Source of the DNA: Candidatus Buchananbacteria bacterium
GTDB taxonomy: Bacteria; Patescibacteriota; Patescibacteriia; Buchananbacterales; UBA6539
Length of the DNA stretch: 64,000 nucleotides
Assembly (NCBI GenBank): GCA_013359225.1
Contig: JABWCG010000001.1
Location: forward strand, 497,627-561,626
Reading direction: 5' to 3'
Below are positions 6,749-56,347 of the stretch, piece by piece (the first letter of the stretch is position 1; every line of letters starts with the position of its first letter). A program made the position numbers and the translations under genes. Under the pieces are notes generated by a model. The model searched no databases. It had not been told where the DNA came from and saw only the letters and a list, made by a program, of their open reading frames with translations.

Positions 6749-6770
6749 ACATTAGTATCTCCTGCAGAAC

Positions 6771-6858: not shown

Positions 6859-6944
6859 TCCTGCAGAAGATCTCCAAACACCCGACTGATATCATTCTGT
6901 CGGGTTTTTTGATAAAATTAAATCAGTATTACTCTTACGACTCT

Positions 6945-16646: not shown

Positions 16647-17579
16647 TTATTTCACAATTTCTTCTTCTGAGAAAATCACAAAGTCGTACAGTCCGGAAAG
16701 CGGCGGCCTAATCGGCGTACGCACTTTAAGCTCTTGGTGCGAACTGCCAAAATCAGCCTGAGAGTTGATAATCAACCGGCTTGGAATATCAAGCCGATTA
16801 CTAATCGGATCAACATCAGTTGCCTTATTAAAAATTGACAAGTTAAACTGCCCGGCCGCGGCATCCGGCAAAATTGAATTACTTACCCTTAGAATATATG
16901 AACAATTCGGATTAATCGACGGGTCGCCGCTATAAACATTCACTAAATAGGTTGAAGATCCGCTACTGTTGATAATAATATCTCCGCGAGTAATCGCCGG
17001 CTCAGGCGGCGTAAATACGTTTGGATTGCAGTCCAGCGTCCCGCCGACTAGCCAGGTGACATTGCTTAATTCAGCTGCCAGCGTACTGCCTGGCGTGCCG
17101 GTTATTTCAAAAGATTCCATTCCGACTTCAAAACCAGCCACCTGATATGGATTGAATAAATCAATTTGGAATGATTCGCCAATATTCAAAAAAATTGAGA
17201 CTTGCTTTTCATTAGTTACTGCAATATCCCACTGCCCGGGCAAGCCGGATAAGTTGCCCTCGTTTAAACTAATACATGGCACCGAATTACTGGGCGTAGT
17301 CAACGAACAGTACCCGGTAATCTGGCAAGTGGAGCCGGACTGAATTTTTGAGCAGTCTTCGGGTTTGACCGCTTCCTTGCGTCTTGTTTCATATAGCGCG
17401 CGTTCGGCACCACTTTCGGCCAAATAATATGATTGAATCGACTGATCAATCAGTCGGGATTGCCGAATTTCACTAATAATCAAATTACTAAAAACAACCG
17501 CCGTCGCTAATACCGAGGCGATAATTAAGATAGCCAGAATTAATACCATGCCCGATTGTTTTTTTTCTGTTCTTGCCAT
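16647..17579 (-). CDS. PilX-like minor pilin / pilus assembly protein.
   Basis: N-terminal TM followed by a PilX_N-like segment VVFSNLIISEIRQSRLIDQSIQSYYLAESGAERAL. It sits within the minor-pilin block. Confidence 0.5.
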   Translation of the reverse strand: MARTEKKQSGMVLILAILIIASVLATAVVFSNLIISEIRQSRLIDQSIQSYYLAESGAERALYETRRKEAVKPEDCSKIQSGSTCQITGYCSLTTPSNSVPCISLNEGNLSGLPGQWDIAVTNEKQVSIFLNIGESFQIDLFNPYQVAGFEVGMESFEITGTPGSTLAAELSNVTWLVGGTLDCNPNVFTPPEPAITRGDIIINSSGSSTYLVNVYSGDPSINPNCSYILRVSNSILPDAAAGQFNLSIFNKATDVDPISNRLDIPSRLIINSQADFGSSHQELKVRTPIRPPLSGLYDFVIFSEEEIVK

Positions 17580-17582
17580 AGC

Positions 17583-18338
17583 TTAACGCTTATACACACG
17601 GCTTGATGTCGTGGTTTGAAGGAAAATTCTTTTTTGATCTTCAGGTTTGCCGCCAACTGATTCAAACCCCAAAACCATTGTTACCCTCGGCTGGACATCA
17701 AACGGCAAACAAAGACCGAGGTTGTCGTCGGCGCCTCCCAATGCGGCGTCATCGCAGCTTTGTGTCCCGCATGAAGACAACACATCAGCGTCCGGGTTAC
17801 AAATGCAAAATCCCGTCAGACCGGAATTATCATTGACCGTACAACTGATTGTATTGTTCAAACAGCCATTCGCCGCCGGTTTTAATGAGTCGTTGCACCT
17901 TTCCTCGGCAAACGGATTTGTCACCGGATCAATATAAAAACGCAGGCTGACAATTTTTACTTCATTAACATCAGTCATTGCCGACTCCTGGCCATTTGCT
18001 AATAATTTCACTTCGCCGCCGGATAAATAAAAAATATAATTATTGCCGTCCTGATCAATCAACGACAATTCTTGTTCAAAACCGGCAATCCCGGTTTCAC
18101 CATCGCCGTCATATACATAACTATAATCAATTTCCGATGTCCGGATTTTACGGACAATCGTCTCGGCAACATACCGCAAATTTGCCAGGGTCTGCTGGCG
18201 AAGTGAAGACTGGCGCTGAGAATTAAGCGCCAATAAAAAAACATTTACAATCACCACCATTAGTATCGAAAAAATACCAAGAACAACTAGCATCTCAATC
18301 AGGGTGAACCCTTGGTTTTTTTGTTTATTTCCACTCAT
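17583..18338 (-). CDS. Type IV minor pilin / pseudopilin (PilW-like).
   Basis: Prepilin N-methylation leader GFTLIEMLVVLGIFSIL. Confidence 0.6.
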   Translation of the reverse strand: MSGNKQKNQGFTLIEMLVVLGIFSILMVVIVNVFLLALNSQRQSSLRQQTLANLRYVAETIVRKIRTSEIDYSYVYDGDGETGIAGFEQELSLIDQDGNNYIFYLSGGEVKLLANGQESAMTDVNEVKIVSLRFYIDPVTNPFAEERCNDSLKPAANGCLNNTISCTVNDNSGLTGFCICNPDADVLSSCGTQSCDDAALGGADDNLGLCLPFDVQPRVTMVLGFESVGGKPEDQKRIFLQTTTSSRVYKR

Positions 18339-18891
18339 ACATCAAAGCTTCAACGGCGACTTGGCGGTTTCGACCGCTTTCCTGCCAGGTCACGACTGAC
18401 CGCGCCTTAAGGCCAATTTTCTGTTCGCCGCTGTCACAACTGGTTTTAATTAAATCTTCGCCATCACTATTTTGACAAATTGATTGTAAACCAATTCTTC
18501 GAGAAAATAAGGAAGGTTGACCAAGCGCCGGATCGTGGCTGTAAACACCGCTTGTTGAGAGGTACAGCCGATCTTTACCTGGCACAATATTAAAATCTAG
18601 CTCCCAGCTGTTATTAGCCTCACTAAAAACGACCAGCGCTTCCGAACCGCCAACAAGACCAGCATCCCAATTAGTGCCGGAAAGCCAATTAGAATCTCTG
18701 ATATTTCTAATAACTTCAAGACCTTCACGCGCCAAATTATTACCAACAACTTGCAGTTCGCTTTGGCGCTGGCCAATCACATTTGAGGTCGTCAGAGCTA
18801 ATACCGCCGAAACAACCATAACCATAATTCCAATAGCAAAAACAGCTTCTAATAATCCCTGGCCTCTTTGCTGTTTAATCCCGACGGTCAT
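18325..18891 (-). CDS. PilV-like minor pilin.
   Basis: Leader QRGQGLLEAVFAIGIMVMVV is PilV-type. It has a 14-nt overlap with the downstream gene. Confidence 0.55.
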   Translation of the reverse strand: MTVGIKQQRGQGLLEAVFAIGIMVMVVSAVLALTTSNVIGQRQSELQVVGNNLAREGLEVIRNIRDSNWLSGTNWDAGLVGGSEALVVFSEANNSWELDFNIVPGKDRLYLSTSGVYSHDPALGQPSLFSRRIGLQSICQNSDGEDLIKTSCDSGEQKIGLKARSVVTWQESGRNRQVAVEALMYEWK

Positions 18892-19480
18892 ATAAATTTC
18901 CGGTTACGCCCCCGCTCAACAATGAAACCATAAAAAATGCCTGCTGATTAGTACGGGAACTTTTTATTACCCCTCCAATATGCTTAAAATCGCTGCCGGC
19001 GTCATAATTGGCGACTGCGCCGCCAGTCTCGTCAAAAATTACTTCCAAATAATTGCCCGCGTCTTCCCAGCCGCTTTGACACGGTAATGTCGTAATCTCG
19101 TCAGTAACCGCACCACATAAATCAATGAGGGTAATATCTTTAAAATTAAGCGTTTGTGCTGGAATCAATTCACCATCCGAAAAACCGTTTGCTGACTGAT
19201 CTAAAGCTGCATACATCTGCGCCGTACTAGGCGAATTCAAATTCAAATAAACACCATATCCACCGTCAGGAAAAGACTGATTAGCTAATAGCTGACCCCC
19301 CAAACTGTAGTTACGAGCGACTTTAAAAAGATTAACTAGCCGCTTGTTTGAAACGTCAATCTCGCCGCTGAATTGCGCTGTCCGAAAATTAGCCAGCACA
19401 TAGCTAAACATAATAATGATGATAACAGCCGCCACCATCAGATCAATAAGCGTAAATCCGCGCGAAGTAGTCTGTTTCAT
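18875..19480 (-). CDS. Type IV minor pilin (FimT/GspH-like).
   Basis: Prepilin leader SRGFTLIDLMVAAVIIII. Its start overlaps pilD by 4 nt. Confidence 0.6.
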   Translation of the reverse strand: MKQTTSRGFTLIDLMVAAVIIIIMFSYVLANFRTAQFSGEIDVSNKRLVNLFKVARNYSLGGQLLANQSFPDGGYGVYLNLNSPSTAQMYAALDQSANGFSDGELIPAQTLNFKDITLIDLCGAVTDEITTLPCQSGWEDAGNYLEVIFDETGGAVANYDAGSDFKHIGGVIKSSRTNQQAFFMVSLLSGGVTGNLYDRRD

Positions 19481-20232
19481 CGATAGAATAAATTAAAATA
19501 CCAATTAATTAATTCCCGGCCGTACAGCATGGTAATAAAGGTTGCTAATGTTAAAAACGGACCAAATGGAACTTCCGAAGACATTTTCTTTTTTTTCAAC
19601 ATCATTAAAAAGACGCCAACTGTCGCGCCAGTCAAATAAGCAATAAACAAGGCAACAAGTACAAATTTCCAGCCAAGCATTAATCCCATTACTGCACCGA
19701 GCCTGATATCTCCATCACCAACCCATCGTCCGCCTGAAATAAAATACTGGGCTGCAAAAAAACCGGCACCTATTGCGGACCCCAATAGCAAATCCGCAAG
19801 CCCGGCCCCAAGATAGATATTCCCCAAAAATGCCACAATCATCGCCGGAACGCTCACCCGGTCCAAAATCAAATAATGCTTCAGGTCATAAACAAATAAA
19901 ACCATCAAAAAAGAGGAGAAAACTGAATAAATAAAAAATTTAGCACCCAAACCAAACACTGTATAAATCCAAACAAACATCAAAGCAGTGGCTAATTCAA
20001 CCATGGGGTACTGCCAAGAAATTGATTGATGACAATTTCGGCACCGTCCGCGCAAAATGATAAAACTAATAACCGGGATGTTGTCATACCAATTTATCTG
20101 ATATTTGCATTTTGGGCACTCTGACCGTCCGGACCAAAAAGATTTTTTTTTGCCAAGCCGAGCAATAACAACGTTCAAAAAACTACCGATAATCAAACCA
20201 AAAATAAATAATATAGACTCAAACATACTCAT
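19477..20232 (-). CDS. pilD: Prepilin peptidase (A24 family).
   Basis: N-terminal tetra-Cys Zn motif CPKCKYQINWYDNIPVISFIILRGRCRNC and a polytopic membrane domain containing GDGDI. Confidence 0.85.
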   Translation of the reverse strand: MSMFESILFIFGLIIGSFLNVVIARLGKKKSFWSGRSECPKCKYQINWYDNIPVISFIILRGRCRNCHQSISWQYPMVELATALMFVWIYTVFGLGAKFFIYSVFSSFLMVLFVYDLKHYLILDRVSVPAMIVAFLGNIYLGAGLADLLLGSAIGAGFFAAQYFISGGRWVGDGDIRLGAVMGLMLGWKFVLVALFIAYLTGATVGVFLMMLKKKKMSSEVPFGPFLTLATFITMLYGRELINWYFNLFYR

Positions 20233-20272
20233 ATTTTACCCTAAAAACCACCTTTCAAGCAAATAAGAAACA

Positions 20273-20303
20273 ATTAGGGCCTTGCTATCTAGCAAGGCCC
20301 TAA
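20273..20303 (-). terminator. Rho-independent terminator after pilin 1.
   Basis: Perfect hairpin TTAGGGCCTTGC-TATC-TAGCAAGGCCCTAA, followed on the minus strand by a T-rich tract, sits 30 nt after the pilin stop. Confidence 0.6.
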
Positions 20304-20333
20304 TTTAGGAAAGTCAAACCATTGTCAGGCTAT

Positions 20334-20801
20334 TTACTGAATACCATCGGGAGTAGCCGTGTGAGCGGTTCCGGTCAAACCACCGGTTTGCCCCTCAAGC
20401 GTGAAAGTAATATTGTATGACGGACAGGGTTCGGAAGTACAGTTTCCGCCGCCACCGGCCGCTACTGATTCATACGTGTATGCCGCACCGCCCGGCGTTG
20501 GGTTTGAAGGAACCAAACCCATATAAATCGGGTCAGCACAAGTAGTATCAAAGCCACCGGAACCAAGACAGGTAACATCCGTACCTAAAGTGTAACCGTC
20601 ACCGTCATCAACCGGGTAACTGCTGCTATCATTGAAATAAAGCTCCAGCGCTGTCTGAACTTGTTTAATGTCGGCAACGCGCTTCGCGTCTCTGGCCTTT
20701 TCTCGGGCCGAATTTAAAGCTACTACCGCCAATGTTGACAGTAAACCAATAATGGCAATAACCACCAACAATTCAATAAGAGTAAAACCTCGTTTTTTCA
20801 T
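20334..20801 (-). CDS. pilA: Type IV major pilin paralog 1 (PilA-like).
   Basis: Class III signal MKKRG|[16 protein letters not shown] with Glu+5. The ORF-track extension MKGGEK is actually the RBS AAAGGAGGTG, so the true ATG is at 20801. The C-terminal region is Gly/Thr-rich with 4 Cys. Confidence 0.85.
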   Translation of the reverse strand: MKKRGFTLIELLVVIAIIGLLSTLAVVALNSAREKARDAKRVADIKQVQTALELYFNDSSSYPVDDGDGYTLGTDVTCLGSGGFDTTCADPIYMGLVPSNPTPGGAAYTYESVAAGGGGNCTSEPCPSYNITFTLEGQTGGLTGTAHTATPDGIQ

Positions 20802-20882
20802 CTTTTCACCTCCTTTCATGGAAAAGAAATTATCAATTATATTAACTTACTAACAGTATACCACAAAAGCGACTTTTGGTAA

Positions 20883-22724
20883 CTAATTACCAGACCATTC
20901 CTTGCGATATTGGATAAACCGGTGATATTCATGATTAAACGGCGCCGTGTCAAAATCAATCGCTTTTACCAAATAATCTTGTGATTTAACACGATCACCT
21001 TCCACTAAATAAATGGCCGCCAAGTTATAAAAATAGTGGCCAATTAATCCGTCATCAGCCGGGTTCTGATGAATCAAATCTTTAACCTCTAAAAGATTTC
21101 GCATTGTCCCAAAATAGTACTGTTGATTAGCTCGCCGTGCCTCTGCCAGCGACGGATAAGCACGATAGGCATAGCCGTTTGGCAGCGAAAACTTTTTTTC
21201 GTTATTATTTTCACTTGTTAATGGATAGTTGGCATATAGCGGCCGGTCTTTAACGCTGTCAACCATGGTGAAAAACGTGCGGCGGCGATCTTCAAAACTC
21301 AACTTATAGTGTTCATCAGGAATTTTAACGTTAACGGTTTTATAAAAGAAATTTTGCTCTGAAATAATATCAACATCGGGCCGGAAATTTTCAACCATCT
21401 TAAAGTAAATCAGCGCAAAAATTTCCGTATCGGTCTGTAGGCTTCCGTCGTAGGCAAAATAATAAATGCTGTTTGGTTCCAGGCTGGACAACAGACCCTT
21501 GGTATAATCATACGTCAACCAATAATCGCTTAAATCATTTTGTCCAAAATTCATTGCCACAAAGCTGACCGGCAGGCTTAATAAGATAATCAATAAAGTA
21601 GCTTGGACTACCGCCTTAAGCTTGGCGTTGTTCTTAATAGTATTTAGTAGAAATTGATATAGATAATCAATAATAATGGCTAGCCACCAGACTAAAACAA
21701 AATAAGCCGGCAAATAGTACACTCGGTACGTGTGGTCTATTCCTAATGCAAAACCGTATTTTCTTAAATAAATCAGACCAAAGCTGTTAAGTAAAAAAAT
21801 GCCGACCGTTAGAGCTGCCAACGGCATATTTTTCTTCCAAAAGTACACTACGCCGCCGGCCGCTAGAATAATTGTTGGCCAAAAAAACTGCCGGTAAATA
21901 TCATACAAAAATGACAACACAATGCCCGTCTTGGAATAGGAGCTACTGAAAGGATTAAGATCGCCATATTTAGCCCTGGTAATGTGTGCAACAACATCTT
22001 GCCAGGTAGTAATCGGTCCCCAATTATAAACCGCTTGTTGCCACGCTCGGATCGGAATATATAAATACACCGACAATCCAAGACAAAACAACCCAAACAT
22101 TTTAACAATTAACCGCCAGTTAAAAATGATTTTTTTATTAACTAACAAAATAAACAAAGTAAACGCCGGGGCTAAAACAATTGACATCGTATGATTAGTC
22201 AAGCAAAGACCATATAGTAGCGAAAACCAATACAAGTATTTATCTTTTTGGTCTTGTTGCCATATCATTAGTAGGTAAATCAGTAAAGCGACAAAAAAAG
22301 TGTTTAATGTATACACTTCCGCCGTCACGCTTTGCGACCAAAAAATCAGGCTAAACGGCAACAACAAACTGACTAAAAAAGAAATAACATATCGGCTGAT
22401 TGTTTTTTGAATTATCAAATACAGCATAACAGCTGTCAGCGCGCCGAAAACTGCTGACATTAAATTAATCCTCCAACCCAATGTGCCGAAAGGAATAAAC
22501 GAAAAAATTTTACCAATCAACAGATACAGCGGAAACCCAGGCGGGTGAGGAATTCCCAATACATGAATGGCGGTCACAAACTCCGGACCGTCTTCGTTTG
22601 TAATGGTCGGAGCCAGCGTAAGTAAATACACCGCCATCACAGCGGTAAAAACCAGACTGGCACCAATAAAATTTTTGCGTAATAAAGTCTTCATTAATCC
22701 GCCTGAAAAATAATAAAATGCCAC
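20883..22724 (-). CDS. DUF2723 / GT-C-fold (PMT/ArnT-like) polytopic membrane glycosyltransferase.
   Basis: 613 aa with many TM helices and a C-terminal soluble domain. The likely true start is ATG 22694, which forms TAATG stop/start coupling with the methyltransferase. Confidence 0.55.
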   Translation of the reverse strand: MAFYYFSGGLMKTLLRKNFIGASLVFTAVMAVYLLTLAPTITNEDGPEFVTAIHVLGIPHPPGFPLYLLIGKIFSFIPFGTLGWRINLMSAVFGALTAVMLYLIIQKTISRYVISFLVSLLLPFSLIFWSQSVTAEVYTLNTFFVALLIYLLMIWQQDQKDKYLYWFSLLYGLCLTNHTMSIVLAPAFTLFILLVNKKIIFNWRLIVKMFGLFCLGLSVYLYIPIRAWQQAVYNWGPITTWQDVVAHITRAKYGDLNPFSSSYSKTGIVLSFLYDIYRQFFWPTIILAAGGVVYFWKKNMPLAALTVGIFLLNSFGLIYLRKYGFALGIDHTYRVYYLPAYFVLVWWLAIIIDYLYQFLLNTIKNNAKLKAVVQATLLIILLSLPVSFVAMNFGQNDLSDYWLTYDYTKGLLSSLEPNSIYYFAYDGSLQTDTEIFALIYFKMVENFRPDVDIISEQNFFYKTVNVKIPDEHYKLSFEDRRRTFFTMVDSVKDRPLYANYPLTSENNNEKKFSLPNGYAYRAYPSLAEARRANQQYYFGTMRNLLEVKDLIHQNPADDGLIGHYFYNLAAIYLVEGDRVKSQDYLVKAIDFDTAPFNHEYHRFIQYRKEWSGN

Positions 22725-23335
22725 ATATTAAAAATTATTTTTTTGCTGGTCACTTGTTTGAAGCCGGCGTCAAGAAAAATACCAAAACCCTCTTTCTTAA
22801 AGTCGTGAACATGCACATCTTCCCAGACCTGTCCTTTCCACTTAAGCCAAAACCACCAGACAATTTTAAACAGCCAATTCTCATTAGGAATAGCAATAAT
22901 AAAATAGCCACCTGGCTTTAATAATCTTTTTACCTCTGCTAAAACCGCTTTAGTATCAGGCAGGTGTTCCATGACGTCAAAACAAGTAGCCGCAATAAAA
23001 TAGTCGTCCGAAAAAAGTTTATCGGCCGGAAAATCAGCACGAACGAATTGAATATGAGGAAAGCGGGATTTGGCATACTCAATAGCTGATCCTGAAATGT
23101 CTACGCCGATTACCGGGCAACCACTCGCCGCTTGCACCACGTTAGTTAAATCTCCGCTATGACACCCTAAATCTAAAATAGTGCCTGTTAGTCGAAGCTT
23201 TTTAATTTCTTTGGTGATAATTTTAAAGCGTCGATGATGCCAGTACCGTTGCAAAAGATTTTTTTTAATCCCACGCTCGTAATAATCAACCGGAACGGCA
23301 TTATGGATCCGGTCTAAGTCTTCTTTAGTGACCAT
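22694..23335 (-). CDS. Class I SAM-dependent methyltransferase.
   Basis: Motif I ILDLGCHSGDLT and a methyltransferase type-11 architecture. Length is 213 aa. Confidence 0.75.
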   Translation of the reverse strand: MVTKEDLDRIHNAVPVDYYERGIKKNLLQRYWHHRRFKIITKEIKKLRLTGTILDLGCHSGDLTNVVQAASGCPVIGVDISGSAIEYAKSRFPHIQFVRADFPADKLFSDDYFIAATCFDVMEHLPDTKAVLAEVKRLLKPGGYFIIAIPNENWLFKIVWWFWLKWKGQVWEDVHVHDFKKEGFGIFLDAGFKQVTSKKIIFNMWHFIIFQAD

Positions 23336-25578
23336 AGTTTATATCTTGCTTTATTAACTTTTGAATAATCAAAAACGAAAAATACAACCAAAAGCAATAG
23401 CGTCAATGCGGTGATATTCCTTCCCATTATAAACGATTTTGGCTGATATTGAAATTTAACCTGGTGCTGTCCTGACGGAATAACTACCCCACTAAATGCG
23501 TTATTGGTTCGAATAATCTCCTGCGGCCGGCCGTCAATTGTCGCCTGCCAACCCGGATAAAAAGTTTTACTAACCACCAATAATTTCGGGGAGTTAACAA
23601 CGACATCAAAAATCATTTCTTGATTTTGATAATCAATAACCGTGGCGTGATCCGACTCACTAAATCCAGAGTCAACTGCTATCTCAGTTTCTACCAGCGC
23701 CCGATCCTGGAATGAAAAATCTGTTCCAAACATCATGCTTAACGCCGACTCTTCGTCCGCAACCGTCTGAACGGTGCCAATCAAAAATGCGCGCGGAAGG
23801 AAAAACTTATTTTCATATATTTTTAACGGCGGCAAAAAATGCTGTCTGATTTCTTCTGCCAAGACCAGGTTATCTGACTTGATTTCATAAAAACTTAAAA
23901 TGTACTTCACGTTCTGCATTCCCAAAACTTTCAGGGTTTGGTCCGGCAAACTGATCCATCCGTCCCGATGAACAAAAAAACTCTGATCAATCCCGGAAAA
24001 TATGTGGGCCAGCCGGGCGTCAAGCTGTCCGCCCTCATTCCATCCCCGATCATTATAAAGCTCAACATTAAAAAGCATGCTCAAATTTGGCTGAAGTAAT
24101 TCCCGTTCTTCCAAAAATAGCGCCATATTATTTTGCCAACCTTCGGAAAATTCGTAGGATTTCATCCAAGATAACTGATAAAAAAAGCTCGCCGTTCTGG
24201 CAAGCTCATTTTTTTGATGAAGAAATTCAGCGCTTTTTGGCATAGTAAAATACTCTGAGGGAAGAAAACCAACGTACTTTGACGCCATGAAAAATAAATC
24301 TGTTACTAATATAAGAATGACTATCATTGGCAAACCGATCCTCAAAAATTTTGACTTACTGTATTTTTTCGTTGCCGTTAGAAATCTTTTAAACTTGTCA
24401 TATATCACGTCAAAGCCGATGGCGGCAAAAATTGATAAACAAAAAGTTAATACCAATAAAAACCTTTGAGAAAATCGAAACATTTTCATCCCCGGAACTA
24501 TCTGCCAAGTCCAAAAATGCACCGGACTGAATTTACCCAAAATCAAAAGGAATGAAGCAATCGCAAGCAGCACTAGCACATAGTCAAGGGTACGTTTCCT
24601 AAATCCCTGATATAAATAATAAACCGCTAATAACAAGGAGATAATGCCAAAATAAAGACTACTTTCCCAAAAGCTGATGCCGGATCGGCTGTCAAAATTT
24701 CCGGTTGCCGGATTGCCGAAAAGGTAGGGTGAAAAAATAGTCAGCAACTGCGACGGTCTGAAGTTTAAAGCTACAGCAGTGTCATAATTAATCCACTCAT
24801 TTCTAGTTGAGATCCGCGAAAGCTCATACGTCGGCAAAAATTGAATTGCACAAAGGCCAAAAGTTAAAATACCTACTAATAGCCATGAACCAAAAATCAT
24901 TTTTATAGATCCTACGATGCCTTTTCTGCCGGGAATTGAGATATACCGCAAGACAAAATAAACAAAGCTTGCCACGATCGTGATATAGCTGATTTGAGGA
25001 TGACCGGCAAAAAATTGAATTGCAAAAACCAGGCTTAATAAAACCAAGTATTTCTTGTTATACTGCTGCAAAATTTTTTCAATCACGTACCATGCCAACG
25101 GCAGCCAAATTGCCGCATTAATCAGATTCAAATGTTTAATTCTAAAAACAAAAAAACCGCTATAGCTAAAAGCGATTGCAGCTAACAGAGCAGCTGAACT
25201 GCTCAAACGAATCACCCTGGCATATAAGTAAGTAAATACTGACCCCAAAAAAAAGTTCGCAACAAAACTACACAGTACCGCCAATCCTAATGGTAAAAAA
25301 ATAAAAAATAAAATATTTACAGGGTAAAATACGCCGCTTTGACCTTCCGCCAGGATCGGCCAACCGTTTCCTAATAGATTTGTCCAAAGCGGAAACTCGC
25401 CCCGACGAAATGAGTCGGCAACCGCGTCACGAAATGGAATATTAAGCTCCGTCAAATCACTGCCCGAATAATCTCCGGCATACGGAATGGTGCCCGTCAA
25501 CAATTGGGGTAAAAATAAAAAAGCTGCCAATGCCAGCAACACCAGTAACGGCCAAATTTTCTTCCAAACCAATAGCAT
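23314..25578 (-). CDS. YfhO-family polytopic membrane protein (GT-C-type glycosyltransferase).
   Basis: 754 aa. The N-terminal region LLTGTIPYAGDYSGSDLTELNIPFRDAVADSFRRGEFPLWTN... and more than 12 TM helices match YfhO proteins. Confidence 0.6.
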   Translation of the reverse strand: MLLVWKKIWPLLVLLALAAFLFLPQLLTGTIPYAGDYSGSDLTELNIPFRDAVADSFRRGEFPLWTNLLGNGWPILAEGQSGVFYPVNILFFIFLPLGLAVLCSFVANFFLGSVFTYLYARVIRLSSSAALLAAIAFSYSGFFVFRIKHLNLINAAIWLPLAWYVIEKILQQYNKKYLVLLSLVFAIQFFAGHPQISYITIVASFVYFVLRYISIPGRKGIVGSIKMIFGSWLLVGILTFGLCAIQFLPTYELSRISTRNEWINYDTAVALNFRPSQLLTIFSPYLFGNPATGNFDSRSGISFWESSLYFGIISLLLAVYYLYQGFRKRTLDYVLVLLAIASFLLILGKFSPVHFWTWQIVPGMKMFRFSQRFLLVLTFCLSIFAAIGFDVIYDKFKRFLTATKKYSKSKFLRIGLPMIVILILVTDLFFMASKYVGFLPSEYFTMPKSAEFLHQKNELARTASFFYQLSWMKSYEFSEGWQNNMALFLEERELLQPNLSMLFNVELYNDRGWNEGGQLDARLAHIFSGIDQSFFVHRDGWISLPDQTLKVLGMQNVKYILSFYEIKSDNLVLAEEIRQHFLPPLKIYENKFFLPRAFLIGTVQTVADEESALSMMFGTDFSFQDRALVETEIAVDSGFSESDHATVIDYQNQEMIFDVVVNSPKLLVVSKTFYPGWQATIDGRPQEIIRTNNAFSGVVIPSGQHQVKFQYQPKSFIMGRNITALTLLLLVVFFVFDYSKVNKARYKLWSLKKT

Positions 25579-25584
25579 TAGTTA

Positions 25585-25620
25585 ATTATATCATCTTTTA
25601 TTTAGCAAATAAACAAAATA
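25585..25620 (-). promoter_or_regulatory. Candidate promoter for the glycosylation cassette.
   Basis: Minus-strand TGATATAAT extended -10 with an upstream TTGTTT, between the pilin-2 terminator and the YfhO start. Confidence 0.25.
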
Positions 25621-25645
25621 AATCCCCCGCAAAACGCGGGGGATT
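25621..25645 (-). terminator. Rho-independent terminator after pilin 2.
   Basis: AATCCCCCGC-AAAA-CGCGGGGGATT followed by a T-run on the minus strand. Confidence 0.6.
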
Positions 25646-25667
25646 GGAAGCTTCCTGCATTTTAAAA

Positions 25668-26147
25668 TTACTGAATTCCGTCTGGGCTAGCAGTATGAGC
25701 GGTTCCGGACAAACCACCAGTCTGACCCTCTAAAGTAAAGGTAAGGCTGTAGGTGCTATTTGTCGAAGCAGTGTAGACGTAATCTGCGCCTCCCGGGCCA
25801 GGGTTAGTAGGCACTAAGCCCATGTAAGTTGTTCCACTCGGACAAGCTGCTGCTGAACCGACGAAACCACAGCTAGTACCGTTAGCACAAGCTGAACCAT
25901 CTCCGCGATAACATAGTACGTCTGATGAAGCAGTTAAACCCAAAGTTGCGGTCTGCACCGGATAACCACCGGCATCGTTGAAGTAAAGCTCCAACGCAGT
26001 CTGCACTTGTTTGATATCGGCAACACGTTTAGCGTCTCGGGCTTTCTCACGAGCTGAGTTCAATGCCACGACCGCTAAAGTTGATAGTAAACCAATAATG
26101 GCAATAACCACCAACAATTCAATTAATGTAAAACCTCGTTTTCTCAT
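25668..26147 (-). CDS. pilA: Type IV major pilin paralog 2.
   Basis: The first ~55 aa are identical to paralog 1 ([58 protein letters not shown]). The C-terminus is conserved ([22 protein letters not shown]) and the middle differs. The RBS is AAGGAAAGGGGGTG. Confidence 0.85.
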
Positions 26148-26170
26148 TTCGTCACCCCCTTTCCTTGGTC

Positions 26171-26193
26171 TCGTTCAAACAAATTTTGAACGA
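26171..26193. repeat. Inverted repeat hairpin between pilin 3 and pilin 2.
   Basis: TCGTTCAA-ACAAATT-TTGAACGA followed by a T-run on the plus strand. This is terminator-shaped in the orientation opposite to the genes. Confidence 0.4.
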
Positions 26194-26259
26194 ATTTTTG
26201 TTTATTTTTTAGTTATCAACAACCAAATATATTATACCAAAAAAATGAAAACTCAACAA

Positions 26260-26682
26260 CTAATACCCGTGAATCTCTTGCGGTCCACCATCTTCAAGAT
26301 AGTAAGTTATGGTAAACTCTTGTCCGTCGCTGTTATAACCATACACATGTTCATTCAAATTAAGCGGATCAATTGGCACGGTTGCCATATATAACTTACC
26401 CGTTTCAGTACCATTCAACGCTGGCGTTAACGCCGTAACCCAGTTAGCCTGAGCATTTTCCGGCAAAAGGTCAGCTAAAGGAAACCTTAAATTATCATCA
26501 AAGTATAAATAAAGTGCTAACTGGACCTGAGACGTGTCAGCCTTGCGTTTAGCGTCTCGAGCCCGAGTTCGAGCGATATTCACCGAGACCGTTGAGAGGC
26601 TAGATAAAATTCCGATAATACTGATAACGACCAACAACTCCACCAAAGTAAAGCCCCGTTTTTTTGATGTTGTTTTAAACAT
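26260..26682 (-). CDS. Type IV pilin paralog 3.
   Basis: Class III leader KKRG|FTLVELLVVISIIGIL with a divergent C-terminus. Length is 140 aa. It sits 18 nt downstream of pilC. Confidence 0.75.
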   Translation of the reverse strand: MFKTTSKKRGFTLVELLVVISIIGILSSLSTVSVNIARTRARDAKRKADTSQVQLALYLYFDDNLRFPLADLLPENAQANWVTALTPALNGTETGKLYMATVPIDPLNLNEHVYGYNSDGQEFTITYYLEDGGPQEIHGY

Positions 26683-26700: not shown

Positions 26701-27906
26701 TTATAAACTGGAAGCTAAATTATAAATTGGCAAAATAATAGCTGAAACCAACGCACCGACCGCTAGGCCCATCAACAACATAATCAACGGCTCAAGTAAC
26801 GTGACTAGATTGTTGACCATATTGTCTACTTCCCGACTGTAGAAATTAGCAATCTTGTCCAAAATTTCATCGATTCGGCCGGTTTTTTCTCCCAGACTTA
26901 ACATCTGCGACACCATCGGCGGTACTTCCCGAGTTCTCAAAAATACCGTAGCAATTGGATTACCATCTTCAACCTCTTCGGCTGTTTCACGAATTAAGTT
27001 GCGATAGACTGAATTGCCGACGACATCAGAAACAATCTGAAGACTTTTTGTCAGCGCAACGCCGCCGGTTGTTAAAGTGTACAAACTTCGTGCAAACCGC
27101 ACTAGAATAATTTTTTGAAACAGTTTGCCAAATATCGGCAATTTCAGAATCATTCTGTCCCATAGCAACTTCCCCTGATCGGTCCGGATCATTGCCTTGA
27201 CGCCGGCAAATAAACCGATGATCGCTGCAAGAATTGCCCACCAAAAACTGGTAAAAAAGTTACTGGTAAAAATCAAAATCTTAGTGGTTAAAGGAAGCTC
27301 AACTCCGGTTTCTGTTAAAATAGAAGTTAATTGCGGAATGACAAAAATCATCATCAATGTTCCGACAATCAATAAACCACCCACAATAAAAACCGGGTAA
27401 ATCATCGCTCCTCTGATTTTAGAGGACAAGTCGTAATCTTTTTCCTGCTGGTCAGCGAGGTAATTTAATACTTCATCAAGCTTACCAGACGTCTCGCCCG
27501 AACGGATAATATTAATAAAAAAATCATTAAAAATTTGCGGATGTCGCGATAACGCCGCCGACAGCTTAGCGCCGCCCTCAACATCATCGGCAACTTCTGA
27601 AACAACTGTTTTTAACACTGGACTTTCAGTCTGGCTGGTTAAAATACGTAATCCCTGAACCAGCGGGATTGTCGCTGAAACAATCACCGAAAGTTGTCGG
27701 GAAAAAATCACTAAATCCTTAATTTTTACCCGATTTAAAATTTTTAAAGACCGCTCCTGTAGGCCCATTTTTTCCACCTCAAGCGATAAAATGGTTAAAT
27801 CACGATCAACTAAAATTTCAGCCGCAACATCCTGGGACGCGGCCTGAATCATTCCTTCAATAACTTCATTATTTTCGTCAGTAGCTTTATAGCGAAAATA
27901 GGGCAT
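26701..27906 (-). CDS. pilC: Type IV pilus platform protein (GspF family).
   Basis: 401 aa with two GspF repeats and three TM segments. Confidence 0.85.
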   Translation of the reverse strand: MPYFRYKATDENNEVIEGMIQAASQDVAAEILVDRDLTILSLEVEKMGLQERSLKILNRVKIKDLVIFSRQLSVIVSATIPLVQGLRILTSQTESPVLKTVVSEVADDVEGGAKLSAALSRHPQIFNDFFINIIRSGETSGKLDEVLNYLADQQEKDYDLSSKIRGAMIYPVFIVGGLLIVGTLMMIFVIPQLTSILTETGVELPLTTKILIFTSNFFTSFWWAILAAIIGLFAGVKAMIRTDQGKLLWDRMILKLPIFGKLFQKIILVRFARSLYTLTTGGVALTKSLQIVSDVVGNSVYRNLIRETAEEVEDGNPIATVFLRTREVPPMVSQMLSLGEKTGRIDEILDKIANFYSREVDNMVNNLVTLLEPLIMLLMGLAVGALVSAIILPIYNLASSL

Positions 27907-27915
27907 AATAACAAA

Positions 27916-28989
27916 TTAAGCTTTAGCCATTGCCCGGAAACTTTCCGGATCAATCGCGTATTCAATCGCTTTATCAATTAATACCTGCCCCGACCGCACT
28001 AACTCTGCTAGAGACTGGTCAAGACTCGACATACCTTCAGCCCGTGAACTTTGTAAAATAGTATCAAGCTGTTTAATCCGACCCTGAGAGATTAATGACC
28101 GGACTGCCTCGGTAGCAATCAACACCTCTGTTGCCAACACTAATCCTCCGCCGGCTCGTGGAACTAATCGCTGGACAATCACCGCCAGCAAACTTTCAGA
28201 CAATAAAAGCTGACCGCGCTGTTTTTCTTCGCCCTTAAACGCCGCAAAAATTTCTTCAATCGTTTGAACTGCTGAAGTAGTGTCCATATTCAAAAAAGCC
28301 AGTCTGCCAGAATTGGCGAATTCCAGAATCAACGGAATTACTTCTGGCTCCTGATTCGCTTCAACGGCCACTACGTCAACATCAGCCTGCTGCGCCGAAC
28401 GCAGAGCACTGGTAAAGCTTAACGTGTCCTTACCGACTTCTCGCTGTTCAACAATACTTTGTTGGTTGGTAAAAATATATTCAATCGGCTTTTCAATTGT
28501 CACAATATTTTCCGCCCGGCTTTTATTGATTTCTTCAATCATTGAAGCGATAGTTGTTGTCCGTCCCGATCCATAGGGGCCGGCGACCACAATCAGGCCG
28601 GAAGTCTTATCGACCAAGCCATAGACTGACTTTGGTAAACCTAAATTAATCAATAACGGCGAACGCTCCGGAATCAGTCGCAGGTTGGCAGACAAAAACC
28701 CTTTCTGAAAAAAGAAACTGATTTTCAACCGAAATTTTTTTGCGACTTCTTTAGTAAAAACAACTGTCCGATCCTGGGCCAATTTTTCTTTTTGTTCAGC
28801 CTCAAGCCATTCCTCAGCCAATGATTTAATGAGGCTGTCGGTAATAATTGGTTCATCTCGCAGCTCCACCAACGAATCATCAATCCGAAAAGCCGGATAG
28901 CTGTTAACACTCAAATGAATCGTCGTCGCCTTTCGCTTCGCCGCCGCCGTCAAAATTTTATTGACAAAAATATTAGCTGAACTGTCCAT
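27916..28989 (-). CDS. pilT: Twitching-motility retraction ATPase.
   Basis: Walker A GLIVVAGPYGSGRTTT and a PilT-length hexameric secretion ATPase (357 aa). Confidence 0.8.
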   Translation of the reverse strand: MDSSANIFVNKILTAAAKRKATTIHLSVNSYPAFRIDDSLVELRDEPIITDSLIKSLAEEWLEAEQKEKLAQDRTVVFTKEVAKKFRLKISFFFQKGFLSANLRLIPERSPLLINLGLPKSVYGLVDKTSGLIVVAGPYGSGRTTTIASMIEEINKSRAENIVTIEKPIEYIFTNQQSIVEQREVGKDTLSFTSALRSAQQADVDVVAVEANQEPEVIPLILEFANSGRLAFLNMDTTSAVQTIEEIFAAFKGEEKQRGQLLLSESLLAVIVQRLVPRAGGGLVLATEVLIATEAVRSLISQGRIKQLDTILQSSRAEGMSSLDQSLAELVRSGQVLIDKAIEYAIDPESFRAMAKA

Positions 28990-28994
28990 AAAAC

Positions 28995-29381
28995 TTATTC
29001 GCCAATTGCTTGGTTAATTTTTTTAACAACCTCTGAAGGCATAAAATGGGCTTTAATCAAATAATCGCTTGCACCCAAATCAAGCCCACGTTTTACCTCG
29101 TCTTTTTGGCTTAAATTAGTTAATAAAACAACCGGAATATTTTTAATTTCTTTATCAGATTTTATTTTTGATAAAACCTCAAACCCATCCATCTTTGGCA
29201 AAATGATATCCAAAAGAATCAAGTCAGGTTTTTTCTCCTTAGCCATTTTAAAACCTTTTTCCCCATCATTAGCCAAAAAAACTTCATAGCCTTCCAAACT
29301 TAACTTGGTAGCATAAAGTTCTGCTAAAAATTCATCATCCTCCACTAACAGAATTGTTTTACTTTTTGCCATAATATTCAT
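28995..29381 (-). CDS. Single-domain CheY-like response regulator (PilH/PilG-like).
   Basis: Receiver motifs LLVEDDE, LILLDIILPKMDGFEV and a conserved K. It sits between pilB and pilT. Confidence 0.75.
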   Translation of the reverse strand: MNIMAKSKTILLVEDDEFLAELYATKLSLEGYEVFLANDGEKGFKMAKEKKPDLILLDIILPKMDGFEVLSKIKSDKEIKNIPVVLLTNLSQKDEVKRGLDLGASDYLIKAHFMPSEVVKKINQAIGE

Positions 29382-29412: not shown

Positions 29413-31158
29413 TTAATTTAATTGGGAAACTCTCATTACTTCGTCCAGCGTTGTTTCAGCTTTCAGCGCTTTAATCAGGCAATCTTGAGTCAGTGTAATA
29501 AAATTCTGGCTCTTTAACATTTTGTTGATTTCAATAGTATTACCGCCGCGGTTAATGGCTTCTCGAACTTCGGGAGTAATTTCTAAAATTTCTGATACGG
29601 CAGTTCGGCCTTGATAACCAAGATTACCACAACTGGCGCAGCCAGCACCTTTATAAAACACCGGCTTGTCAATATCAATTCCTTCTAACCCTTCTAAATA
29701 TTTCTTGGGAATCTGGCTTAACTCACTTTTAACTTTTTTCATCATTAGCTCGGGAACTTTTGTTTCCTGTTTGCAGTTTGGGCACAGCTTTCGCGCCAAT
29801 CGTTGAGCAATAACCACGTTCATGACTGACGACAACAAAAATGGTTCAGCGCCTAAGTCGATTAATCGGGGAATTGCACCAACTGAATTGTTAGTATGCA
29901 GCGTTGAAAGCATTAAGTGTCCGGTTAAGCTCGCATGAATAACTAATTCTGTTGTTTCCTTGTCTCTAATTTCTCCCAACATCACCACATTGGGATCTTG
30001 ACGCAAAATTGCCCGCAAACCAGAAGCGAAGGTATAATTGATTTCCTGATTAATCTGTGACTGGTTAACTCCATCAACATAATACTCAATCGGGTCTTCG
30101 AGCGTCACAATATTTATTCCGTCTTTGTTAATCATGGTCAAGATGGTATATAACGTCGTTGTTTTACCAGAACCAGTCGGACCAGTAAGCAGCAGCAAGC
30201 CGTTTGGTTTTTTAATCGCCTCTTTTATGGTTTCAATATGAATACTATTAAAACCAAGCTGATCTAAAGAAGGAATTTGGGCATTTGAATCCAAAATACG
30301 CAAAACAACTTTTTCGCCTTCAAATAACGGCAAAGTTGAAACACGAAAATCAATATCGCGGCCTTCAATATTCAACCGAATCCGGCCATCCTGAGGTTTT
30401 CGGGTTTCATCCAATTTTAAATTTGCCAACACTTTAATGCGCGCCACAATCGCCGAATGAATATATTTTGGTAAAACCAAAGAAGTTCGCAAGATACCGT
30501 CAATACGGTAGCGGACTTTCGTGTCTTTTGTGGTTGGCTCAATGTGAATGTCTGAAGCCCGGCCATCAATCGCGTGGCGAACAATTACTAAAACCATTTT
30601 AGAAACCGGCGCACTCTTAATAACCTCTTCCATCTCCTTCAAAGATTCCTCCGCGGTCTTTTCAACCACTTGTTGCTGTTCATTAATTCCGGCCAAAGCT
30701 TGTTTTACCTCTTCGCCCAACGCCTGATATTGCCGCAAACCTAAGCGAAAACTGGTTGGTGAAATGATGAAATATCTAATTTTTAATCCAGCCTTCTGAG
30801 CTAAAAATTCAACTGCTTCAATCGCTTTAAAATTTTGAGGGTTCACCAAACCAACTCGCAACTCCGACCCTTCTTTTTCAAAGGGTATCATTTGATAGTT
30901 TTCAGCAACCTCCTTAGGAATCAAATTCAAAACTTTTTTGTCAATCGTTTTATTTTGAAAATCGGCAACTGGCGTATTTAAAATTTTTGATTTGGTCGCC
31001 AACAGCTCTTTGTCGGTAATCAATCGTTCCTCAATAATAAGTTCTTCGGGAGTTTTTCGAACTTCCGAAGATTTTTTAAGCAAATCGTCAGCCGCCTGCC
31101 GAGTCAACAGATTACCGGCGACCAATGCTTCAACAAGTTGGGATTGATTTCTTAACAT
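29413..31158 (-). CDS. pilB: Type IV pilus assembly ATPase (GspE family).
   Basis: Walker A LLLTGPTGSGKTTTLY, a tetracysteine CPNC...CASC and N-terminal T2SE_N domains. Length is 581 aa. Confidence 0.9.
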   Translation of the reverse strand: MLRNQSQLVEALVAGNLLTRQAADDLLKKSSEVRKTPEELIIEERLITDKELLATKSKILNTPVADFQNKTIDKKVLNLIPKEVAENYQMIPFEKEGSELRVGLVNPQNFKAIEAVEFLAQKAGLKIRYFIISPTSFRLGLRQYQALGEEVKQALAGINEQQQVVEKTAEESLKEMEEVIKSAPVSKMVLVIVRHAIDGRASDIHIEPTTKDTKVRYRIDGILRTSLVLPKYIHSAIVARIKVLANLKLDETRKPQDGRIRLNIEGRDIDFRVSTLPLFEGEKVVLRILDSNAQIPSLDQLGFNSIHIETIKEAIKKPNGLLLLTGPTGSGKTTTLYTILTMINKDGINIVTLEDPIEYYVDGVNQSQINQEINYTFASGLRAILRQDPNVVMLGEIRDKETTELVIHASLTGHLMLSTLHTNNSVGAIPRLIDLGAEPFLLSSVMNVVIAQRLARKLCPNCKQETKVPELMMKKVKSELSQIPKKYLEGLEGIDIDKPVFYKGAGCASCGNLGYQGRTAVSEILEITPEVREAINRGGNTIEINKMLKSQNFITLTQDCLIKALKAETTLDEVMRVSQLN

Positions 31159-33359: not shown

Positions 33360-34544
33360 TTATTCAATATCGCGCATTGCTAAACCAATGGCAACTGAAA
33401 ATCGTGGGCCAATTTCATCAAGCACCGGCTTTAATTCTTCCGGATAAATTACCCGTGCCCACGGATCACCCAAAAACACTCTCAGGCCCAAGGAGCTGGA
33501 CAGGTATTCGGGCAAATTAAGCAACAATGACGACCCGCCGGTCAAAACTATTTTTTCAATATTTTTTTGTCCTTGGTTTTTATACAGATTCAAACTATAC
33601 CTGAGCTCATCAATAATCGGCGTTAAGGTTTGTTCAATCGTTTTAGGAACGCTTCCCTGTCCCTTACGATCCGGACTCATGCCAATATCATATTTAAACT
33701 GTTCCGCCCGGCTCAAGCTGACATTTAAACTGTTTGCAATCGCTTTGGTAATCGTCAAACCGCCAACATCAATACTGCGATTCAAAATTGGAATACTATT
33801 AACCACAACTGAAATGTTAGTTACCACCGAACCAATGTCAACCACCATCAGGGCCGATTTATCGTTTCCAACCAACGACCTGATTAAAGCAAATGATTCC
33901 GTATCAAGGCTTAATAAATTCAAACCACTGCCCTTAAAAATATCAATGTAGCGCTTCACCAAATCTTTAGGCGCCGCTGTCAAAAGTATTTTAGTGTATT
34001 TTTTCGGGGTCGTGCTTTTAATTTTCAAAAAACCCTTAGTTCGCAATTCACCAACAGAATCGAGATTATCAGAACCATTACCGTTTTGATTTTTAGCGTC
34101 AGTGACCTGATCACCGTCGAAATCTTCCAAAATTTTCCAGTCTAAAATCATTTCCTCGATTGGTAACGGAATGACCTTTTTTGCCTCCCACTTAACCGCC
34201 GTAGCCAAATCTTTTTTTGCCATCCCTGGCAGATTCAAAATTGAAGAAAAAACCGAATAGGCCGGCAACGAAGTCACCGCTTTTGTTGTCGTCACCTGAG
34301 CCTGAGAATACACCTGTTTAATCAGTTTTGAAGTTTCATTCTTCGAATCGCCGCCTTCCTTGTTCTCGGACTTGTCAATTTCCCGATCAATAAACCCATA
34401 GGTAACCAGGCGTGGACGGCCACCTTCATTTTTTAGTTCTACTATTTTGATGCTGTTCGTATCTACATCAACACCTAAATAACTTTGTGAAGAAGAAAAT
34501 AATCCCATAGTTACGTTTATCTGGAAAATGTTTCTGATCGCCAA
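33360..34544 (-). CDS. pilM: Type IV pilus assembly ATPase-fold protein PilM.
   Basis: Actin-like fold segments LGVDVDTNSIKIVEL and VVDIGSVVTNISVV. Alternative start ATG 34508 would avoid overlap with the upstream gene. Confidence 0.75.
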   Translation of the reverse strand: MAIRNIFQINVTMGLFSSSQSYLGVDVDTNSIKIVELKNEGGRPRLVTYGFIDREIDKSENKEGGDSKNETSKLIKQVYSQAQVTTTKAVTSLPAYSVFSSILNLPGMAKKDLATAVKWEAKKVIPLPIEEMILDWKILEDFDGDQVTDAKNQNGNGSDNLDSVGELRTKGFLKIKSTTPKKYTKILLTAAPKDLVKRYIDIFKGSGLNLLSLDTESFALIRSLVGNDKSALMVVDIGSVVTNISVVVNSIPILNRSIDVGGLTITKAIANSLNVSLSRAEQFKYDIGMSPDRKGQGSVPKTIEQTLTPIIDELRYSLNLYKNQGQKNIEKIVLTGGSSLLLNLPEYLSSSLGLRVFLGDPWARVIYPEELKPVLDEIGPRFSVAIGLAMRDIE

Positions 34545-55655: not shown

Positions 55656-55658
55656 AAG

Positions 55659-56336: not shown

Positions 56337-56347
56337 AAATAGATTAA

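Follow-up and report, generated by a model that had tools for sequence, protein, structure and literature searches.

Why should genes for two putative membrane glycosyltransferases and a methyltransferase lie between the pilin genes of a bacterial type IV pilus locus? The question is raised by a 64-kb stretch of DNA from Candidatus Buchananbacteria (hereafter "the window," meaning the whole stretch analyzed). The window contains a complete type IV pilus locus, all on the minus strand, which is transcribed in the order PilM, two further proteins, PilB, a response regulator, PilT, PilC, pilin 3, pilin 2, a YfhO-family enzyme, a class I S-adenosylmethionine (SAM)-dependent methyltransferase, a DUF2723 enzyme, pilin 1, PilD, four minor-pilin-like genes, and LigA. 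The three pilin genes bracket the YfhO, methyltransferase, and DUF2723 genes, which form a translationally coupled operon (the cassette); the pilins and the cassette lie at the coordinates where a first-pass annotation had placed them. We consider it probable that the cassette is an accessory system for pilin O-glycosylation that uses lipid-linked monosaccharide donors and occupies a variable slot between PilC and PilD. This reading is based on the conserved position of the cassette, its independent recurrence, the protein fusions found among its relatives, and the presence of a different cassette in the same slot. The first-pass annotation had proposed a pilin O-glycosylation or modification system, and the linkage to the slot and the recurrence in other phyla support that proposal, with glycosylation as the activity being read from the genome context.

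A scan seeded with DUF2723, in which one genome was taken per species, yielded 79 loci, whose open reading frames (ORFs) were searched with the window proteins, and a metagenome scan seeded with an eight-sequence YfhO alignment yielded 45 loci. In a neighbor-joining tree of 92 DUF2723 relatives, 20 of the 23 genes in the Patescibacteria clade, counting that of the window, were within 5 kb of pilus genes, and the Patescibacteria orthologs with at least about 32% identity and usable flanking sequences were all in pilus loci (L001–L015, L020, L030, L031). The usual order in the related loci was PilB-response regulator-PilT-PilC-pilin(s)-[YfhO]-[methyltransferase]-DUF2723-[pilin]-PilD-minor pilins-LigA. 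Likewise, in the YfhO-seeded scan, the close YfhO orthologs with flanking sequence all occupied the PilC-to-PilD slot, immediately after a pilin gene. The linkage of DUF2723 and YfhO with pilin genes, which the first-pass annotation had put forward for checking in related genomes, was thus found, whereas the opposite outcome, a cassette situated in cell-wall polymer loci unrelated to pilins, was looked for in these genomes and not found: orthologs of both GT-C genes occupied the PilC-to-PilD slot across Patescibacteria. The make-up of the cassette varied, with YfhO, a 465-aa protein, the methyltransferase, and a GT2 protein each present or not, but its position was fixed.

The 465-aa protein is a polytopic membrane protein. 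Eight close relatives (L001 2828–4231, L004 8563–9960, and L005 7990–9399, and also L085, L087, L088, L091, and L094) encode it between YfhO and either the methyltransferase or DUF2723, and there is a distant copy beside YfhO on an Armatimonadota contig (L052 14705–16153). It had no Pfam match even at an E-value of 5. Because this protein is absent from the window, the cassette there can be regarded as a reduced version.

A conserved position could also be a historical accident, in which one ancestral insertion persisted because gene order is conserved in the small Patescibacteria genomes, without any functional tie to the pilus. The gene order from PilB to LigA is indeed very stable across these genomes, and most of the sampled sister pilus loci work without the cassette. 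However, pilin-adjacent DUF2723 or YfhO genes also occurred in other phyla and in PilS/PilR-type loci. DUF2723 was found in the order pilin-pilin-DUF2723-GT2 in Zixibacteria (L053, L068), PilC-four pilins-DUF2723 in Nitrospirota (L047), and PilC-pilin-YfhO-three PMT_2 proteins-DUF2723 in WOR-1 (L017); it followed PilD in L078 and also adjoined pilins in L055, and the DUF2723 sequences of L053/L068, L055, L047, L078, and L017 were on separate branches of the tree. YfhO was encoded in the order pilin-PilD-YfhO in Elusimicrobia (L104) and pilin-pilin-YfhO-PilD, without DUF2723, in L093. Furthermore, distant YfhO relatives (26–32% identity) directly followed pilin genes in L108, L110, L112, L113, and L119, loci that contained PilB, PilC, and a PilR-like regulator; in L112, PilC and this regulator are separated by an ORF resembling a sensor kinase. 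In both L112 and L119, a class I methyltransferase came after YfhO, and the pilins had Ser/Thr/Pro-rich tails (e.g., LPTTPPTVTAS). Either GT-C enzyme can therefore stand alone beside pilins. Recurrence on separate branches, a fixed position with varying content, and a non-homologous PMT_2 cassette in the same slot (L082, described below) all argue against the accident, which we consider quite improbable.

The slot was also approached from the pilin side, by sampling seven loci with pilins about 60–65% identical to pilin 1 from a very large family (7,936 of 8,000 scored candidates passed E ≤1e−5). In six of the seven, the PilC-to-PilD slot contained no GT-C gene and held one to five pilins, in one case together with a histidine kinase. 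In the seventh, from Kuenenbacteria (L082), GtrA, GT2, and a 545-aa PMT_2 GT-C protein were encoded on the opposite strand between two pilin genes. The PilC-to-PilD slot is therefore a variable region, which accepts additional pilins as well as GT-C cassettes of at least two unrelated kinds, and resembles in this the pilin-allele-specific accessory genes of Pseudomonas aeruginosa. The absence of a GT-C gene from six of the seven sampled sister loci shows that the GT-C cassette is accessory and not part of the core pilus machine.

Protein fusions in the related loci suggest how the components may work together. In L093, YfhO is fused at its C-terminus, beyond the last transmembrane helix, to the same methyltransferase domain, and the window YfhO has a lysine/arginine-rich tail beyond its last transmembrane helix; because of these two features, the methyltransferase should be cytoplasmic, where SAM is available. 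In L012/L095, a GT2::methyltransferase fusion is encoded between YfhO and DUF2723, and its GT2 half best matched the polyprenyl-phosphate sugar synthases ArnC, AglJ, PgfS, and PpgS, with all matches below the curated cut-offs and informative at the family level only. In L011 (P0056), a GtrA-like domain is fused to DUF2723 beside PilD, and its N-terminus is 66% identical to the GtrA of L082. These fusions fit the three-part logic of GT-C systems, namely, a GT2 synthase, a GtrA-type flippase, and a GT-C transferase, and from them we infer that the methyltransferase acts at the step of the lipid-linked donor. The archaeal enzyme AglP provides a precedent, as a SAM enzyme of the cytoplasm that methylates a lipid-linked glycan. 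In the mechanism we propose, a cytoplasmic GT2, encoded outside the window, would load a sugar onto polyprenyl phosphate, and the SAM methyltransferase, at the cytoplasmic face beside YfhO, would methylate the lipid-linked sugar. The donor would then be flipped to the outer face of the membrane, where the TMEM260-like and YfhO enzymes would place sugars on Ser/Thr residues of membrane-anchored pilin 1 and/or pilin 2 before polymerization. The sequences and models show the gene families, the conserved Asp at the catalytic position, the GT-C fold, the organization of the operon, and a linkage to pilin genes that is conserved and recurs; we infer that the pilins are the acceptors, which sugar is transferred, what the methyltransferase does, and how the two GT-C enzymes divide the work.

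Are the cassette proteins what their positions suggest? The DUF2723 protein (20883–22694, minus strand; 603 aa from the ATG in TAATG) matched PF11028 with 123 bits against a curated cut-off of 24.2 (E = 1.5e−35) and also matched PMT_2. As a single sequence, it aligned with the structure of human TMEM260 (9rql_A) over residues 11–453 against 28–472 (E = 2e−35), and a profile of 26 DUF2723 relatives matched 9rql with E = 1.6e−67; judged by sequence, it is a clear homolog of human TMEM260. Asp35 and Glu38, which are invariant in the 26 relatives, aligned with TMEM260 Asp52 and Glu55, respectively, and Asp52 is predicted to be catalytically important (PMC10214176). The AlphaFold2 model of the DUF2723 protein (predicted local distance difference test [pLDDT] score, 91.2) had a helix pattern that fits approximately 11 transmembrane helices followed by a 200-residue C-terminal domain, and its Foldseek matches with a probability of 1.0 were the GT-C-fold proteins PglB, STT3, ArnT, ALG9/12, Pmt4, and DPY19. 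By the positive-inside rule, the N-terminus of the model would be cytoplasmic, and the Asp35 loop and C-terminal domain would face outward. Toward the C-terminus, the model contained a mixed alpha/beta region and then helical hairpins at residues 545–601, and weak tetratricopeptide repeat (TPR) matches were detected at residues 556–594 (E of about 0.04); clear TPR arrays occurred in more distant DUF2723 relatives.

The YfhO-family protein (23314–25578, minus strand), a predicted GT-C membrane glycosyltransferase, matched PF09586 with 83.4 bits against a cut-off of 28.5. In its first outer loop, D36 and D41 were invariant in the eight closest orthologs, and D41 was invariant in all 13. Its C-terminus weakly matched PgfM1/PgfM2 (E = 4e−11, 42 bits against a cut-off of 1500), and a PDB sequence search found no structure of the YfhO family, the sole match (16 bits) being spurious. 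The methyltransferase (22694–23335, minus strand) matched Methyltransf_23/25/11 with E-values of 1e−17 to 3e−20. The families to which the first-pass annotation had assigned the proteins of this region (PMT-like DUF2723, YfhO, class I SAM methyltransferase, and pilin) were thus confirmed by Pfam. The conserved acidic residues of the two GT-C homologs bear on the idea that these proteins have become inactive or been repurposed, for example, as a platform or chaperone for pilus assembly similar to TfpY. Pilin accessory proteins of that kind do exist, since TfpY, TfpX, and TfpZ aid assembly without glycosylating the pilin. However, the invariant Asp35 and Glu38 of the DUF2723 protein, which align with D52 and E55 of TMEM260, and the acidic residues that do not vary in loop 1 of YfhO are hard to reconcile with a loss of activity, and only sugar transfer would explain why the genes co-occur or are fused with partners of the GT2, GtrA, and methyltransferase types. 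We therefore consider an inactive or repurposed pair very improbable.

The three cassette genes form one translationally coupled unit because the methyltransferase stop codon overlaps the DUF2723 start codon by 1 nt in the sequence TAATG, the coupling already pointed out in the first-pass annotation, and the YfhO and methyltransferase genes overlap by 22 nt. The unit begins past an intrinsic-terminator-like hairpin that follows pilin 2 (25621–25645, minus strand; an 11-bp stem with 7 GC pairs and a T-tract) and runs, without a terminator, into a promoter-like site (20855–20882, minus strand) that has an extended −10 element and immediately precedes pilin 1; an AGGAGG ribosome-binding site comes after it. 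After pilin 1, there is a strong terminator-like hairpin with a 15-bp stem (20272–20305, minus strand). The earlier statement that each pilin has its own terminator consequently holds for pilins 1 and 2 and fails for pilin 3, on whose 3′ side there is a weak, AT-rich, 9-bp hairpin (26171–26193) with no T-tract on the coding strand. This hairpin lies between a TGgTATAAT promoter-like site and the pilin 2 ribosome-binding site, scores as a terminator only on the opposite (plus) strand, and is likely part of the 5′ leader of pilin 2.

If pilins are the acceptors, which of the three could be modified? The N_methyl prepilin motif was found in all three (E = 2e−9 to 7e−9), with G at −1, F at +1, and E at +5 and a common leader junction, KRG|[16 protein letters not shown]; the window pilins have the class III leader and hydrophobic alpha-1 of type IV pilins, with PilD encoded in the same locus. 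Pilin 1 (20334–20801, minus strand) and pilin 2 (25668–26147, minus strand) are major-type pilins encoded downstream and upstream of the cassette, respectively, and share 75% identity overall. Pilin 3 (26260–26682, minus strand; N_methyl E = 6e−9), with orthologs in L003, L005, and L006, is small and lacks the C-terminal TGGL…HTA[ST] segment. The globular parts of pilins 1 and 2 consist of 24–26% Ser+Thr (26% in pilin 2) and 18–19% Gly and contain four Cys each, and that of pilin 3 consists of 10% Ser+Thr and 9% Gly and contains no Cys. Pilin 3 is not Ser/Thr-rich. The Ser/Thr-rich pilins 1 and 2 have features expected of substrates, which supports the pilin O-glycosylation reading. The AlphaFold2 model of pilin 1 (pLDDT, 91.9) consisted of a 52-residue N-terminal helix and a small beta-sheet; the best-scoring matches in the PDB were all pilins or pseudopilins (FimA, EpsG, and Clostridioides difficile PilA1), none of them at E ≤0.001.

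Residues 3–58 of pilins 1 and 2 are identical (56 residues, one more than the 55 first reported), and the two differ at residue 2, which is K or R. Synonymous differences affect 26 of the first 57 codons, and in the conserved 24-residue tail, there are 12 synonymous and 2 non-synonymous codon differences. The pair stems from an old duplication that purifying selection has maintained, in line with the first-pass annotation, which had called it not recent, and the 26 synonymous differences in the N-terminal 57 codons rule out a recent copy or recent gene conversion between them. Pilin 1 carries an extra Cys-x6-Cys loop before the last strands. A Cys-x(4–6)-Cys loop was found in the pilin type encoded downstream of the cassette, including its counterparts in L002–L005 and P0125, and upstream pilins lacked it; the three-pilin gene order was found again in L003, L005, and L006. 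Because the loop is type specific and the three-pilin order recurs, the pilin paralogs appear to be distinct retained lineages or roles rather than interchangeable cassettes. This partly addresses the earlier idea of alternative major subunits, keeping the plurality of pilins but suggesting distinct roles in place of interchangeability.

A DsbA-like thioredoxin-fold protein (11982–12719, minus strand) is encoded a few kilobases beyond the downstream end of the pilus locus, past LigA and a gene of the amidase family (PF01425), and L083 has the same neighborhood. Because pilins 1 and 2 carry four Cys each, their disulfide formation may depend on this protein.

The conserved C-terminal motif of the pilins, TLEGxTGGL..G.HTA[ST].DGIQ, was considered as an acceptor site specific to the cassette and was rejected, being equally conserved in pilins from two cassette-free loci (P0235, P0225). 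In the pilin 1 model, this motif lies within the last beta-hairpin, and it is probably structural.

The cassette might instead serve general envelope glycosylation, modifying many surface proteins or else a polymer, of the cell wall or anchored to lipid, through which the pilus has to pass. It would then be in the pilus locus for co-regulation only, and the pilins would be at most one of many substrates. In favor of this, the streptococcal YfhO enzymes act on many membrane proteins, the YfhO homologs of Bacillus subtilis and Listeria monocytogenes reportedly glycosylate teichoic acids, not proteins (PMC5836110), and the pilins yielded no motif restricted to loci with the cassette. DUF2723 paralogs also occur outside pilus loci, both as other paralogs from Patescibacteria assemblies (L042, L050, L056, L067) and among distant TPR-fused relatives in Firestonebacteria, Hydrogenedentota, and Elusimicrobia, which were mostly away from pilus genes and often in paralog arrays. 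Against a general envelope function, the cassette genes are not just close to the pilus locus but flanked by pilin genes on both sides; their adjacency to pilins recurs in unrelated phyla; and in L082, the very same position between pilins is taken by another cassette of three parts. Moreover, TMEM260 is a protein-specific O-mannosyltransferase, a narrow enzyme with specific clients (PMC10214176). On balance, we regard general envelope glycosylation as unlikely, although it is the main rival of the pilin reading.

Several observations count against pilin O-glycosylation by an accessory cassette. Together with the teichoic acid precedent, the Patescibacteria paralogs located away from pilus genes, and the six sampled slots without a GT-C gene, they include the failure to find a cassette-specific acceptor motif in the pilins, given that the conserved C-terminal motif is also present in two cassette-free loci. 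No GT2 or GtrA donor genes were found in the 64-kb window by Pfam scans of 30 further ORFs or by BLAST with GT2 and GtrA queries. Every sequence came from metagenome-assembled genomes, and the 20 pilus-linked genes among the 23 are not 20 independent events because the Patescibacteria loci share ancestry. We nevertheless retain pilin O-glycosylation as the best reading of the locus. Experimental precedents speak for it: human TMEM260 O-glycosylates proteins (PMC10214176), and so do streptococcal YfhO-family enzymes, of which PgtC2 and PgfM1 modify Ser/Thr-rich outer protein regions from lipid-linked sugars (PMC12041528). TfpW is a precedent for pilin glycosylation by a GT-C enzyme, and as such it also lowers the novelty of the proposal.

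Among the other DUF2723 branches, an Armatimonadota locus (L016 7924–21011) contains six tandem DUF2723 paralogs with no pilus genes nearby, and similar paralog arrays are present in Firestonebacteria (L027, L032) and Elusimicrobia (L038). These arrays suggest other clients, perhaps several, for other branches of the family.

The remainder of the pilus locus is as follows, and all of its genes are on the minus strand. At the upstream end, a PilM-like pilus assembly protein with an ATPase fold (33360–34544) matched PF11104 (PilM_2, E = 2e−38). The ORF at 29413–31158, named as a PilB-type extension ATPase from its sequence features, has orthologs 48–73% identical at the matching position of related loci, and its equivalents in L082, L083, and L129 carry PF05157 and PF00437. 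PilT, a putative retraction ATPase (27916–28989), likewise has orthologs in related loci. The PilC platform protein (26701–27906) matched PF00482 (T2SSF, E = 1e−59), and the PilD prepilin peptidase/N-methyltransferase (19477–20232) matched PF06750 (E = 2e−35) and PF01478. Four overlapping minor-pilin-like genes occupy 16647–19480 (18875–19480, 18325–18891, 17583–18338, and 16647–17579), with N-terminal motifs of the GFTL(I/L)E type and an order that is kept in related loci. Between PilB and PilT, a single-domain response regulator (28995–29381) is encoded, whose orthologs are 63–81% identical at the matching position in many related Patescibacteria pilus loci (L003–L008, L012, L020) and whose equivalents in L083 and L129 matched PF00072. 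This conserved insertion between the two motor genes hints at direct phospho-control of the pilus motors.

Elsewhere in the window, a 1234-aa protein encoded just upstream of the pilus assembly genes (37984–41688, minus strand) has a dockerin type I domain (E = 6e−12) and a C-terminal Peptidase_S74 "chaperone of endosialidase" domain (E = 1e−10), the latter being typical of phage tail-fiber-like, self-cleaving surface fibers; ORFs of 820 aa (34517–36979) and 319 aa (36992–37951) lie between it and PilM. A type IV secretion-like set (53763–57931, minus strand) includes a VirB4/TraG-type P-loop ATPase (53763–55655, PF19044) and a PrgI-family protein (56348–56806), with unassigned ORFs on either side, and beyond it are MetK (57950–59128) and a 1139-aa ORF (60565–63984). 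On the plus strand, the longest ORF of a P-type cation ATPase (6777–9482, with GTG at 6777) overlaps tRNA-Ser(tga) (6770–6861); because the Pfam matches begin only at residue 68, the true start is probably downstream of the tRNA.

What would be new if the cassette glycosylates pilins? The O-glycosylation of pilins is an established phenomenon, and TfpW is an existing example of a GT-C enzyme whose gene adjoins pilA; the new part is the link of DUF2723 and YfhO to pili, since we found no literature linking DUF2723/TMEM260-like or YfhO enzymes to pilins. We know of no substrate at present for bacterial members of the TMEM260 (DUF2723) family. A broader proposal, which we hold tentatively and with slightly less than even confidence, is that these bacterial members are dedicated type IV pilin O-glycosyltransferases and that, together with a YfhO-methyltransferase-GT2 branch giving a methylated sugar, they form an unrecognized route of pilin glycosylation across Patescibacteria, Zixibacteria, Nitrospirota, Elusimicrobia, and other phyla known mainly from metagenome-assembled genomes. 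If true, pilins would be the first substrate class for bacterial TMEM260 homologs, protein glycosylation by the YfhO family would extend beyond Firmicutes, and the client-specific human TMEM260 would gain an evolutionary context. To our knowledge, all cultivated Patescibacteria live attached to other microbes, and type IV pili drive host binding in the cultivated Saccharibacteria studied. A study of the Saccharibacteria pilus gives pilin glycosylation as a prediction awaiting confirmation and names no enzyme (PMC11623550), and the TMEM260 paper mentions the bacterial members merely as "distant homologs in bacteria" (PMC10214176). The conserved, pilin-linked GT-C cassette supplies concrete candidate enzymes for pilin glycosylation in Patescibacteria. 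By analogy with TfpO and TfpW of P. aeruginosa, the glycans on pilins could influence how hosts are recognized and how well cells resist phages specific to the pilus.

How does the cassette compare with the known systems? Like PglL, TfpO, and PglS, the Wzy_C enzymes, it would O-glycosylate pilins on the outer side of the cytoplasmic membrane, drawing on lipid-linked donors, and tfpO also adjoins pilA. However, those enzymes transfer preassembled oligosaccharides from undecaprenyl pyrophosphate, whereas GT-C enzymes of the PMT, YfhO, and TMEM260 types transfer single sugars from polyprenyl monophosphate. No cassette protein had a Wzy_C match at E ≤0.01, in agreement with the first-pass annotation, which had distinguished its GT-C families from PglL/TfpO but omitted TfpW. 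The cyanobacterial pilin glycosyltransferase Ogt belongs to an unrelated family, as a cytoplasmic GT41 enzyme. The YfhO/GtlB-CsbB-GtcA systems of Firmicutes combine a GT2 synthase, a GtrA-type flippase, and a GT-C enzyme, parts that are also seen in the related pilus loci (L082, L011, L012, L053), but their acceptor is lipoteichoic or wall teichoic acid, and the genomic partner of the window cassette is the pilin genes.

In the streptococcal systems GtrB/PgtC2 and PgfS/PgfM1/PgfE/PgfM2, YfhO-family GT-C enzymes act outside the membrane on Ser/Thr-rich regions of surface proteins, using sugars that GT2 enzymes have loaded onto undecaprenyl phosphate, and two GT-C enzymes are possible in one pathway. 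In contrast to the cassette, their substrates are adhesins and membrane proteins with disordered tails, and a methyltransferase partner is not described there; the window YfhO is similar to PgfM1/PgfM2 only weakly and only at its C-terminus. Human TMEM260 shares with the DUF2723 enzyme sequence homology over the GT-C module, the Asp at the catalytic position in the first outer loop, and a helix count that fits approximately 11 transmembrane helices, after which comes a C-terminal domain, predicted to be on the outer side and with only weak TPR matches in the window enzyme. The two differ in that the window enzyme is bacterial and would use a bacterial polyprenyl-phosphate donor rather than dolichol-P-mannose, and the clients of TMEM260 are the IPT domains of plexins, cMET, and RON, whereas the proposed client of the window enzyme is a type IV pilin. 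Their C-terminal domains also lack detectable sequence similarity, the alignment ending at about residue 470.

P. aeruginosa TfpW, compared here by its description only, resembles the DUF2723 enzyme in overall architecture, being a polytopic GT-C enzyme for which 11 transmembrane helices are predicted and whose loop 1 carries an acidic motif; the C-terminal domain of TfpW is a TPR domain located in the periplasm. It is encoded by a strain-variable accessory gene directly downstream of pilA, and the window cassette is also adjacent to pilin genes and variable among lineages. TfpW arabinosylates the pilin with a polyprenyl-phosphate sugar made by genes located elsewhere. However, TfpW transfers oligomers of D-arabinofuranose and is described as Emb/ArnT-like, whereas the window cassette combines two GT-C families with a methyltransferase, between pilin paralogs, in a monoderm-type locus of Patescibacteria.

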